39,461 nt of DNA. Origin: Escherichia phage PhiV-1. Positions 1 through 39,461 of the stretch are shown here, in pieces. The stretch is taken from the sequence record MT542512; one strand, written 5' to 3'. A program made the translations under genes and the position numbers. The notes under the pieces are model-generated. The model was not told the DNA's origin. It was given only the letters and a program-made list of their open reading frames with translations, and searched no databases. The number at the start of each line of letters is the position of its first letter. The first letter of the stretch is position 1.

Positions 1-180
1 CCCCCCCCTATGGCCTCCTTCAGTTCCACCCAAAGAGTGCCACCCCTATGGTAACTTATGGTTTACTTAATGTCAATCCTTATGTGTGACATTGGGATGA
101 CTTAGGGTTAACCACTAGATATGGTGCTTAGGGTGACCTTATGACCACTATATGTAGTCCTCTCTGTGTCCCTATCTGTA
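1..180. repeat. Probable terminal-repeat segment (single collapsed copy) continuing from the window end; inner boundary near 180 is inferred
   Basis: Window end (tctcatagttcatacaaagtgtttcccccccc) joined to window start (cccccccctatgg...) resembles the T7/T3 left terminus (TCTCA.AG..AAAGT.CCCCC.ATAGG); ctctctgtgtccctatctgt at 160-179 matches the inner end of the T7 terminal repeat as recalled. Confidence 0.4.
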
Positions 181-283
181 AGTGACCTTTGAGTCATCAC
201 CTTATGTTTCCTCTTTGAGTCATCACCTTATGACCTCCTTATGGCTGGCTATCCTTATGTTAACCTTCAGTCGGTGCCTTATG
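78..283. repeat. Left-end array of short CCTTATG direct repeats (counterpart of T7 CCTAAAG repeats)
   Basis: CCTTATG at 78, 137, 200, 226, 237, 253, 277; 20-bp duplicate ctttgagtcatcaccttatg at 187-206 and 213-232. Confidence 0.6.
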
Positions 284-423: not shown

Positions 424-446
424 TAATGCGACTCACTAATGGGATA
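424..446 (+). promoter_or_regulatory. Phage RNAP promoter (phiOL position)
   Basis: TAATGCGACTCACTAATGGGATA. Confidence 0.6.
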
Positions 447-33403: not shown

Positions 33404-35371
33404 ATGGCTAACAAGATTCGTACTGTGATGACTTACCCACTTAATGGTGCCGTGAACTTCACGATTACCTTTGAGTATCTGGCACGTAAGTTCATCCAAG
33501 TGACACTCATTGGTAAAGACCGTAAAGAACTGGTTCTCAATCAGGACTACCGTTTTACCAGTAAGACTCAAATTACTACTACCCGTGCGTGGACTGCTGC
33601 TGATGGCTACCAGATGATTGAGATTCGTCGATTCACTTCGGCTACTGACCGTCTGGTTGACTTTGCCGATGGCTCAATCCTCCGTGCGTATGACCTGAAC
33701 ATCTCGCAGATTCAAACACTGCATGTTGCCGAAGAAGCACGAGACCTCACTGCGGATACCATTGGTGTCAACAATGATGGTCACTTAGATGCTCGTGGTC
33801 GTAAGATTGTTAACTTGGCGTATGCCACAAGTGACTATGATGCCGTTCCTTTAAAGCAGGTTAAAGAGCGTGAATCCTCTGCATGGAATGCTGTGACAAA
33901 AGCTAACGAACACGCTGACAGGGCCAATAAGGAAGCAAACCGTTCTCGTGATGAGGCCAACCGTGCCCAACGTGAAGCTGACCGCTCAACGCAACAGGCA
34001 GGTGTCTCTACACAACAAGCAGTTGAGGCCAAGAAGCAAGCTGACCGTTCTAACTCTGAGGCTAACCGAGCTAAAGGTTATGCTGATAGTATGACCGCAA
34101 GTGTCGCTGAGGCCAAGAAGCAAGCTGACCGTTCCACCTCTGAGGCCAATCGTGCCCGTGATGAGGCCAATCGTGCTGCCGGAGAAGTGACTAAAGCTGC
34201 TGCTGAGGTTGCCAAGGCTGCTGCACACGTTGAGACCGCTAAGAGTCACGCCAATCGTGCTAACACTGAGGCAGAACGCTCTAAGAGTGAAGCCGACCGT
34301 GCTAAAACCGAGGCTGACAAGCTGGGTAATATGAATGAATTAGCTGAGGCCATCGACAGGGTTGATGCTCCTGATGTTTACTTCAAGAGGAATGTTATAG
34401 CCGGACACAAATTGGAGACTTCTGGAGGCTCGCATCTTCACCCTAATGAGATTAAATTGGTTAACAATAAATCTCCAGACCAGCACTTCATTGTACAAGC
34501 GTGGGGAACTGGAGACCCTAATAATAGGTCGCAGGTGTTTGAGTTAAAGGATAACTTGGGTCCGTACGCATTCTATATCCAGCGCCAGAAGAAGACAGAC
34601 CAAACTTGGCAAATGAGTGTGAACGGTACTGTTAGCTGCGTATCCATCGAGGCTGGCAAGGGTTTCATCTCTAAGGACAGTACAGGCTCCATTCAGATGA
34701 AGACTTGGGGGGGTGGTTGGAACCAATGGACTTCTAATGCTGTTCCAGACATTCAGCACGATATTGAGGCCCAACATGATGCTGCTTATCTTCTGGAGAG
34801 GGCTACCATTTGGGGTAAGGAGCATTTATACGCAAAACAACTGTACAATAATGGCACTGGCGCAAACTTCTTTATTCGCCACTACCTACGAGGCTCTTAC
34901 TTCGACTTCCGCTCTGATGGTACTCTTATCAGTTCCACCGGATGGAATATCCCGGCAGATGGAAACCTGTACATCAAGAAATATGGACTATATATTGATG
35001 CGTGGGTTAACAAGCGCTTGGGCGAACACGCCTACAACAAGAGCGAGACAAACAACCTAGTGAATGGTCGATTGACACAAGCGCAAGCTGATGGTCGCTA
35101 CATTCGCAAGAACGCTGGTTGGGCTGAGGTCTGGAGCGGCTCTGCTGGTGGTGGTGTTTCCGTAGGTCTCTCACAGGATGTTCGTTGGAGAACCATCTGG
35201 ATTCAAACTCAAGGCAGATGGAACCCTGTTCAGATTGGTGATAATGGTGCTTACTACATCTCGTCTAATGGTGGGTGGTTGAAGTTCACCATCTCTAATA
35301 ACGGTAGGACGTTCCGTAACGATGAGGACAGGACTTCTGTTCCTACGAGAATCTTGATTCAAAACCAATAA
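33404..35371 (+). CDS. 17: Tail fibre protein
   Basis: 655 aa; N-terminal about 150 aa and C-terminal tip (AWTQVWSGSAGGGVSV..SQD.R.R.IWI...SNG..F.N..D.RSVP) match T7 gp17; central coiled-coil longer than in T7 (553 aa). Confidence 0.95.
   Translation: MANKIRTVMTYPLNGAVNFTITFEYLARKFIQVTLIGKDRKELVLNQDYRFTSKTQITTTRAWTAADGYQMIEIRRFTSATDRLVDFADGSILRAYDLNISQIQTLHVAEEARDLTADTIGVNNDGHLDARGRKIVNLAYATSDYDAVPLKQVKERESSAWNAVTKANEHADRANKEANRSRDEANRAQREADRSTQQAGVSTQQAVEAKKQADRSNSEANRAKGYADSMTASVAEAKKQADRSTSEANRARDEANRAAGEVTKAAAEVAKAAAHVETAKSHANRANTEAERSKSEADRAKTEADKLGNMNELAEAIDRVDAPDVYFKRNVIAGHKLETSGGSHLHPNEIKLVNNKSPDQHFIVQAWGTGDPNNRSQVFELKDNLGPYAFYIQRQKKTDQTWQMSVNGTVSCVSIEAGKGFISKDSTGSIQMKTWGGGWNQWTSNAVPDIQHDIEAQHDAAYLLERATIWGKEHLYAKQLYNNGTGANFFIRHYLRGSYFDFRSDGTLISSTGWNIPADGNLYIKKYGLYIDAWVNKRLGEHAYNKSETNNLVNGRLTQAQADGRYIRKNAGWAEVWSGSAGGGVSVGLSQDVRWRTIWIQTQGRWNPVQIGDNGAYYISSNGGWLKFTISNNGRTFRNDEDRTSVPTRILIQNQ
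33948..34175 (+). repeat. Internal direct repeats within tail-fibre shaft coding region
   Basis: 26-bp exact repeat gaggccaagaagcaagctgaccgttc at 34025-34050 and 34109-34134; cgtgatgaggccaa(c/t)cgtgc at 33948 and 34157. Confidence 0.65.
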
Positions 35372-38845: not shown

Positions 38846-38868
38846 TAATACGACTCACTATTGGGAAG
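38846..38868 (+). promoter_or_regulatory. Phage RNAP promoter (phiOR position)
   Basis: TAATACGACTCACTATTGGGAAG followed by cttaaag repeats. Confidence 0.7.
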
Positions 38869-39024
38869 GGCACCCTAAGACAACTTAAAGACACTTAAAG
38901 ACTGCATATGCAAAGTGCATACTTAGTGACTACTCTTAGAGACCCTTACAGTGAGGTATGATGGTAATAGTAATTACATCCCTACTATCAGTGTAACCAT
39001 CAAGTATAACAAGGAGGACGCTCT

Positions 39025-39180: not shown

Positions 39181-39348
39181 ACTACTCATCGGCGCTTAGT
39201 GCGCTCTTAGTGATTATGGTCGATATACATCTTCCCTATAATCACTGTAAGAAGTCAACTCTAAGAGTATCCATTATGTAACCTCTATGGTCTACAGGGT
39301 CTCTTAGGGTCTATCACGTAGTCTCACCGCTATGCTCCCTGCGTAGCA

Positions 39349-39381
39349 CCTTATGATAGCCACTCTGTGGTGAACCTTATG
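39349..39381. repeat. Right-end CCTTATG repeat copies
   Basis: ccttatga at 39349 and 39375, same heptamer as left-end array. Confidence 0.45.
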
Positions 39382-39429
39382 AGACTTGATGTACCCTTTA
39401 AGAATCCTACAGAAAAATCTGAGTGGGTA

Positions 39430-39461
39430 TCTCATAGTTCATACAAAGTGTTTCCCCCCCC
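39430..39461. repeat. Probable physical left genome terminus / start of terminal repeat (TCTCATAGTTCA...)
   Basis: tctcatagttcatacaaagtgtttcccccccc resembles the conserved T7/T3 genome 5' terminus. Confidence 0.45.

Follow-up and report, generated by a model that had tools for sequence, protein, structure and literature searches.

The terminal junction of the PhiV-1 genome

The sequence analysed here, referred to throughout as the window, is the entire 39,461-nucleotide record of Escherichia phage PhiV-1 (MT542512). Both of its ends carry short co-oriented copies of the heptamer CCTTATG, which lie between two phage promoter-like sequences, and the genes for gp18 (PF11123) and gp19 (T7 terminase RNaseH-like domain) lie a short way upstream. 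The features of this region are collected in Table 1 in the order in which they would follow one another once the two ends are joined.

Table 1. Features of the terminal junction in the window (SRR, array left of the terminal repeat; SRL, array right of it; TR, terminal repeat, with boundaries placed by homology)
Feature	Position	Strand	Remarks
phiOR-like phage promoter TAATACGACTCACTATTGGGAAG	38846..38868	+	phiOR of BA14 annotated at the homologous place; transcription runs on through the junction
Degenerate SRR copy CATTATG	39272..39278	+	exact CCTTATG in 10/10 relatives with complete junctions
SRR heptamer CCTTATG	39349..39355	+	81 nt short of the TR start; unchanged in 11/11 aligned junctions (window + 10)
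SRR heptamer CCTTATG	39375..39381	+	26 nt beyond the preceding copy and 55 nt short of the TR start; invariant in 11/11
Conserved box immediately left of the TR, CCCTTTAAGAATCCTACAGAAAAATCTGAGTGGGTA	39394..39429	+	common to T7, T3 and K11; ends at the inferred left-end cut
TR, first 32 nt, TCTCATAGTTCATACAAAGTGTTTCCCCCCCC	39430..39461	+	identical to the mature left terminus in BA14 and Kvp1
C8 run, overlap at the contig opening within the TR	1..8	+	duplicate of 39454-39461
TR, remainder	9..173	+	terminates ...CTCTCTGTGTCCCT, as in BA14, T7, T3 and K11
Heptamer CCTTATG within the TR	78..84	+	TR position 102
Heptamer CCTTATG within the TR	137..143	+	TR position 161
ATCTGTA, corresponding to ATCTGTT, the class II RNA polymerase pause core in T7	174..180	+	by homology; junction feature of BA14 overlaps
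SRL array, eight co-oriented sites	187..283	+	CTTTGAG 187, 213; CCTTATG 200, 226, 237, 253, 277; CCTTCAG 264
26-bp unit, two copies	187..232	+	exact 20-bp cores CTTTGAGTCATCACCTTATG at 187-206 and 213-232
phiOL-like phage promoter TAATGCGACTCACTAATGGGATA	424..446	+	right limit of the SRL region; phiOL of BA14 annotated at the homologous place

The window ends are 85–95% identical to those of Berlinvirus genomes (Kvp1, BA14, FE44, S523, CarlSpitteler and others), and the genome body shows ~93% identity to its nearest records, 285P, CarlSpitteler and ErnstBeyeler, over 24 kb. Both boxes by which a T7-group junction is recognized, AAAAATCTGAGTGGGTA/TCTCATAG and CTCTCTGTGTCCCT/ATCTGT, are found in the window. 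The window very probably represents the genome of a phage of the T7-group genus Berlinvirus, in which the TR was collapsed to one copy and the contig opened inside it. As ~93% falls under the 95% species line, PhiV-1 probably represents a Berlinvirus species of its own when set against that collection of records.

The original prediction had assumed that the window is bounded by terminal repeats. This is not the case: the only sequence common to both ends is a run of eight C, the suffix at 39454–39461 being repeated as the prefix at 1–8, and no second copy of the TR was found in the window, where no other end-derived 12- or 15-mer recurs. Because this C8 run is all that the ends share, and because the relatives carry C5–C7 at the place where the contig is opened, the ends are best interpreted as overlapping by 8 nt, the collapsed junction having been opened within the TR. 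The opening bases of the window, CCCCCCCCTATGGCC..., carry on from the left-end sequence of BA14 and Kvp1 that occupies its last 32 nt. It follows that the ‘left-end’ and ‘right-end’ copies of CCTTATG belong to one contiguous array at a single junction. A genuine run of 16 C at the contig ends was also considered and was rejected in favour of the overlap, given the shorter runs of the relatives; the true run in the window might be either 8 nt long or C5–C7, as in the relatives.

With its limits and C-run length taken by homology to Kvp1 and BA14, the TR of the window would measure about 197 bp in total. The TR of BA14 is 194 bp long and ends in ...CTCTCTGTGTCCCT, followed by ATCTGT, with an annotated ‘concatemeric junction’ misc_feature overlapping the homologous site. 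That of Kvp1 is also 194 bp long, ending one base earlier than in BA14 (...GTGTCCC); the Kvp1 termini were established by primer walking on phage DNA. Among the relatives with complete junctions, TR length ranges from 177 to 197 bp. The record of phage Berlin, of which only the left end was compared, annotates a 226-bp terminal repeat.

Several further elements accompany the junction. Inside the TR, adjoining the heptamer at 78, lies a leftward sigma-70-like promoter (76–48 on the minus strand; TTGACA, 17 nt, TACCAT; 10 of 12 matches), which resembles A0, the leftward promoter annotated for T3 inside the repeat and for T7 in the SRL. Of the 16 promoter-like sites in the genome, most read TAATACGACTCACTA(T/A)TGGGA; the phiOL-like sequence deviates from these and from the phiOR-like promoter. 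The phiOL-like and phiOR-like promoters are both followed by members of a second short repeat family, represented by 2.8 tandem copies of AACTTAAAGAC at 487–517, just after the phiOL-like promoter, and by two copies of CTTAAAG at 38884–38900, after the phiOR-like one. T7 likewise possesses a second short repeat family, with ACTTAAAG after phiOL.

Distribution and anatomy of the CCTTATG copies

Exact CCTTATG occurs on the plus strand at 78, 137, 200, 226, 237, 253, 277, 39349 and 39375, and none is found on the minus strand in the junction. The predicted seven or more copies at 78–283 and two additional ones near the right end are thus all present, exact and on one strand, and the predicted 20-bp duplicate is exact as well. 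The existence of the array had been made to depend on a copy number above random expectation, and the excess is clear: on both strands of the whole window there are 16 copies versus 3.26 +/- 1.77 expected from 100 dinucleotide shuffles, which reached a maximum of 8 (0/100 reached 16). The nine junction copies fall within 388 nt, where about 0.02–0.05 would be expected; under a Poisson model, base composition gives a probability of 2e-21 for at least nine in that length, and the rate elsewhere in the genome gives 5e-18. Of all 7-mers in the genome, CCTTATG shows the strongest clustering. The seven copies outside the junction (five on the plus strand, two on the minus strand) correspond to about the chance number, with no depletion, and all lie in coding sequence in contexts of the Pro-Tyr type.

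Another heptamer, TGAGGCC, occurs six times at 33952–34345 (at most five per 400 nt), within the tail-fibre gene at 33404–35371. Its surroundings repeat GAGGCCAA(G/T/C)... and, judged from the DNA alone, look like repeats of a coding sequence rather than a DNA signal.

Relative to the TR, two of the junction copies lie in SRR, two in the TR and five in SRL, the last at +27 to +104. The array had been predicted to lie internal to the terminal repeat, which holds for the five left copies situated to the right of the TR but not for those at 78 and 137, which fall inside the inferred repeat. Spacings in the array range from 11 to 26 bp. When CTTTGAG and CCTTCAG are counted, the eight SRL sites follow one another in steps of 13, 13, 13, 11, 16, 11 and 13 bp, and the series begins 13 nt past the ATCTGTA pause core. 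One-mismatch copies in the window include, besides the degenerate SRR copy, CCCTATG at 6 and 44 and ACTTATG at 54. The ratio of exact to one-mismatch copies is about 3 to 1, against a chance ratio of 1 to 21.

The looser pattern CYTNNNG occurs 23 times on the plus strand versus 3 times on the minus strand in 421 nt, or 5.5 per 100 nt versus 1.2 genome-wide, and base autocorrelation in the junction shows peaks at lags 11 and 26 (z = 4.9 and 3.7, respectively). With high confidence, held jointly with the identification of the array as a Berlinvirus one, CCTTATG and the degenerate CTTTGAG, CCTTCAG, CCCTATG and CTTAGGG form a strand-asymmetric, quasi-periodic CYT-N3-G series with a spacing of 10–13 bp, extending from about 39349 to 283. 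This is not a head-to-tail array of the VNTR kind, as the 26-bp unit is present only twice and the sites are interspersed. Tandem Repeats Finder (TRF), run on positions 1–700, did not call the array tandem and reported solely the repeat after the phiOL-like promoter. Rfam gave no match at the array, and no relevant inverted repeats turned up around the left cut.

The junction in other Berlinviruses

All 11 other Berlinviruses examined (Kvp1, BA14, Berlin, S523, CarlSpitteler, ErnstBeyeler, SWJM-03, P151, DS_BP2, P694 and P483) carry CCTTATG in the junction region. The ten with complete junctions have 7–12 copies each, distributed over the same three compartments as in the window, and share with it the arrays, a TR of ~180–197 bp, the ATCTGTA sequence and the SRR pair, 26 bp apart at about -81/-55. 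In phage Berlin, compared at its left end only, both the array (8 CCTTATG in the left 420 nt) and the ATCTGTA core are present. The junction of the window differs from theirs only in the copy number and unit arrangement of SRL and in the degenerate state of its third SRR copy. The number of exact SRL copies ranges from 1 in Kvp1 to 8 in CarlSpitteler, with 5 in the window, and shifts by units of 13 or 26 bp; the 20-bp core and its 26-bp unit, found twice in the window, exist in CarlSpitteler as four identical copies and a variant fifth. Within the TR, individual copies toggle by point changes between CCTTATG, CCCTATG, CTTAATG and CATTATG.

The sequence surrounding the heptamers is far from uniform. 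The 104 copies in 11 junctions fall into 73 distinct 27-nt contexts, and their flanks hold less than 0.65 bit per position. In the alignment of SRR and TR, mean pairwise identity is 0.95 for heptamer columns versus 0.83 for the others (one-sided Mann–Whitney P = 0.005, with the sites defined from the window's own row).

P483 differs from the other Berlinviruses in the internal repeat of its TR (about 565–700), which lacks CCTTATG and holds about 6–8 copies of an 11–12-bp unit, ATAACTYTGTGG, instead; as its SRR and SRL retain CCTTATG, the interior of the TR appears to have been exchanged within the genus. In the SRL spacer of CarlSpitteler, (GA)n is expanded to about 16 units, against GAGAGAGA at 355–362 in the window; this expansion and the extra 26-bp units together show active slippage in a non-coding stretch. 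A scan of IMG/VR for three CCTTATG in a row returned at least 120 loci; the junction box was present in 5 among the matches listed, and the remaining ones listed look unrelated.

Comparison with T7, T3 and K11

Dunn & Studier reportedly described in 1983 the short-repeat arrays of T7, SRL and SRR, in which CCTAAAG recurs on either side of the 160-bp terminal repeat. We verified these arrays in the sequence NC_001604. Counted as SRR/TR/SRL, CCTAAAG is present in 2/3/8 copies in T7 and in 4/3/2 copies in T3, and Klebsiella phage K11 (Przondovirus) has CCTGAGG in 2/1/2 copies, all of them on the plus strand. The CCT-N3-G frame on that strand is enriched 5–10 fold per junction (11–23 copies versus about 2 in shuffles). 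SRL steps in T7 are 13, 13, 12, 13, 13, ..., 13, 13, 13, 13, 13, in Berlin 13 six times and in T3 12–13.

T7 and the window agree in having co-oriented plus-strand copies within the TR as well as to its left and right, with ~13-bp spacing and the CCT-N3-G frame, in an array that adjoins conserved cut and pause boxes between phiOR and phiOL. They differ in the central triplet (AAA in T7, TAT in the window), in the size of SRL (8 exact copies and 13 in series versus 5 and 8), in TR length (160 versus 197 bp) and in the pause core (ATCTGTT versus ATCTGTA). K11 shares the architecture, the frame and the placement of copies on both TR flanks, and differs by the triplet GAG, fewer exact copies and a weaker strand bias. 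There is no CCTAAAG in the junction of the window and no CCTTATG in that of T7. The proposal that the array stands in place of the CCTAAAG array of T7 is therefore borne out, with the same position and orientation and a comparable copy number, and so is the lineage specificity of the heptamer: CCTTATG in 12 of 12 Berlinviruses, CCTAAAG in T7 and T3, CCTGAGG in K11. Set against the SRL/SRR type, the array is found in a T7-group host, flanks the TR and has a co-oriented, interspersed 7-bp unit with ~13-bp spacing in SRL; its unit is CCTTATG, sharing with CCTAAAG only the CCT..G frame, which makes it a Berlinvirus variant. We thus have little doubt, as far as sequence comparison can tell, that the CCTTATG copies are the Berlinvirus form of the same-orientation 7-bp repeats that flank (SRR, SRL) and enter the TR in T7, T3 and K11.

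The processing boxes themselves follow a different pattern. The left-cut box AAAAATCTGAGTGGGTA/TCTCATAG and the right-boundary box CTCTGTGTCCCT/ATCTGT are both common to the window, T7, T3 and K11, so the known processing signals are not lineage-specific, contrary to what the original prediction proposed. Since separate boxes for cleavage and pausing are conserved across genera, the heptamers themselves are, by this comparative reasoning, neither cleavage nor pause signals. The pause core reads ATCTGTT in T7, T3 and K11; the window and the 11 other Berlinviruses examined all have ATCTGTA. Any change in ATCTGTT has been published to abolish class II termination by T7 RNA polymerase; either ATCTGTA is a variant core read by the polymerases of Berlinviruses, or pausing is different there.

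Possible roles of the repeats

The CCTTATG array is real but ordinary: it is the genus-typical Berlinvirus form of repeats that have been known from T7 ever since the sequencing of that genome. Its use lies in the corrections it affords, namely where the TR lies, that the ‘left’ and ‘right’ copies are one array and that the heptamers are distinct from the processing boxes. The array and the conserved boxes together place the physical ends (39430 and 173) of a collapsed, arbitrarily opened Berlinvirus genome, and the reading of the window is corrected accordingly. Biologically, little is new; T7-group genera hold the position, orientation, frame and ~13-bp spacing of the array, but change the triplet jointly on both TR flanks, and such joint change with a preserved layout argues for a shared reader. 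To our knowledge, the function of the T7 short-repeat arrays has never been established. No experiment assigning one to the T7 heptamers was found in the accessible literature, nor was an open-access description of the CCTTATG form, text matches to CCTAAAG and CCTTATG being of the primer type only.

What, then, could the repeats be for? We tentatively favour, as the most likely role, redundant cis-acting sites for junction-processing proteins; the array identity and this mechanism taken together receive a probability of roughly 0.45, and the role considered by itself somewhat less. The CCTTATG sites would serve as individually dispensable, redundant contacts, with the gp18/gp19 small/large terminase as the best candidate for binding them. 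In favour of this candidate, its genes lie close to the junction, and T3 and T7, which have one heptamer in common, possess interchangeable gp18 proteins. Proteins seated on both flanks of the single TR would help to place the nuclease at ...GGGTA/TCTCATAG and ...GTGTCCCT/ATCTGTA during repeat duplication. In support, one heptamer is retained on both flanks within each lineage, though it differs between lineages. Selection on the motif is suggested by the near-uninformative flanks around the heptamers and by the greater conservation of heptamer columns in SRR and TR, and redundancy by the variation of SRL copy number among relatives. In a published T7 insertion scan, insertions were tolerated at most genome-end loci but not at 142 and 162, two positions at the end of the TR, which is consistent with essential boxes accompanied by redundant flanking arrays. 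On the other side, the irregular SRL spacing (11–26 bp) is out of phase with the DNA helix, CCTTATG is not depleted in the remainder of the genome, and the single exact SRL copy of Kvp1 and the absence of any in the TR of P483 indicate that any requirement is loose.

Short iterated motifs flank terminase cut sites in other phages as well: the pac hexamers of P1, the pacL/pacR boxes of SPP1 and the R sites of lambda cosB. Like these, the Berlinvirus array consists of short repeated motifs next to a terminase cleavage site, and the resemblance may be one of working principle rather than homology, the motifs being unrelated in sequence to CCTTATG. T7-type maturation, unlike the pac and cos systems, involves two sequence-specific cuts, TR duplication and an RNA polymerase pause.

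Could the array instead be a neutral by-product without sequence-specific function, VNTR-like and generated by replication slippage and unequal recombination in a junction that is non-coding and prone to recombine? Much in its evolution would fit such an origin: the gain and loss of 13- and 26-bp units, by which SRL varies from 1 to 8 copies in close relatives, the exact 20-bp duplicate of the window, the further multiplied unit of CarlSpitteler with an expanded (GA)n nearby, the flipping of individual TR copies among four variants and the tolerance of most T7 end loci to insertions. We nevertheless regard this origin as unlikely, because slippage does not readily account for a single orientation, for one heptamer in three compartments split by unique conserved sequence, for a core more conserved than its flanks or for the surplus of exact over one-mismatch copies; TRF sees no head-to-tail array, and the position of the array is held in four genera while its unit changes jointly on both flanks. 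Somewhat less likely still is a structural or replicative role, in which the quasi-periodic series would shape or flex the junction DNA, or aid annealing or strand displacement during concatemer formation and TR duplication, with no sequence-specific reader. The 10–13-bp quasi-period across the entire junction and the persistence of frame and spacing under a triplet that varies by lineage are what would be expected if shape outweighed sequence. A shape effect, however, needs no exact heptamer identity within a lineage, the AAA triplet of T7 and the TAT of the window have different bending properties, and SRL and SRR lie outside the annealing segment; a part in replication is also disfavoured by the absence of GTC, required by T7-type primase, from the heptamer.

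We consider it improbable that the heptamers modulate the phage RNA polymerase on its way from phiOR through the junction, by pausing, lysozyme-dependent arrest or R-loop formation, or act in the transcript. Every copy is indeed co-oriented with transcription from the phiOR-like promoter, and the SRL series opens 13 nt beyond ATCTGTA, but the heptamers are unlike the class II signal, copies stand well upstream of the pause site (SRR) as well as downstream of it, and Rfam matches nothing there. The class II signal has, moreover, been published as a short autonomous element in vitro. A coding explanation, in which the array would lie within a small gene, is the least credible of all and was rejected. 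An open reading frame does exist at 182–301 (39 aa), owing to the ATG carried by each heptamer, and the phage Berlin record annotates a comparable hypothetical protein (ORF1, 150–359) across its array. This frame, however, has no Pfam match, the stop-free stretches of SRL vary in frame, length and sequence over 11 junctions, and a single genome reads its heptamers in more than one frame, with further copies in the TR and SRR. With neither a conserved frame nor a conserved peptide in the relatives, the array is taken as non-coding, and the ORF1 annotation is probably spurious.

The original prediction also suggested lineage-specific packaging signals. Published work on T3 and T7 found their gp18 proteins interchangeable and traced packaging specificity to gp19 together with the terminal 5% of the DNA. 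The two phages share a heptamer and yet display gp19-dependent specificity; heptamer identity therefore does not set that specificity. A bolder extension, which we consider rather doubtful, is that the CCT-N3-G series provides a cooperative platform for a ring-shaped junction protein (the gp18 terminase or a partner), with the triplet (AAA in T7 and T3, TAT in Berlinvirus, GAG in K11) co-evolving with its reader and contributing to the packaging incompatibility of co-infecting T7-group genera. If this were true, swapping arrays among the three natural variants would put a T7 feature that has gone unexplained for 40 years to a direct test.

A comparison of the terminase proteins gives gp18 identities of 92% between T7 and T3 and of 72–75% for all pairs across lineages with different heptamers; for gp19, the corresponding values are 86% for T7–T3 versus 79–84% between lineages. 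The gp18 identities are compatible with redundant contacts but, like those of gp19, track the overall phylogeny, and at the level of sequence they neither identify nor exclude a reader. Co-variation of gp18 with the central triplet was not detected beyond phylogeny, and there were no triplet-specific changes. In its N-terminal half, the gp18 of the window is no more distant from that of T3 than the gp18 of T7 is.
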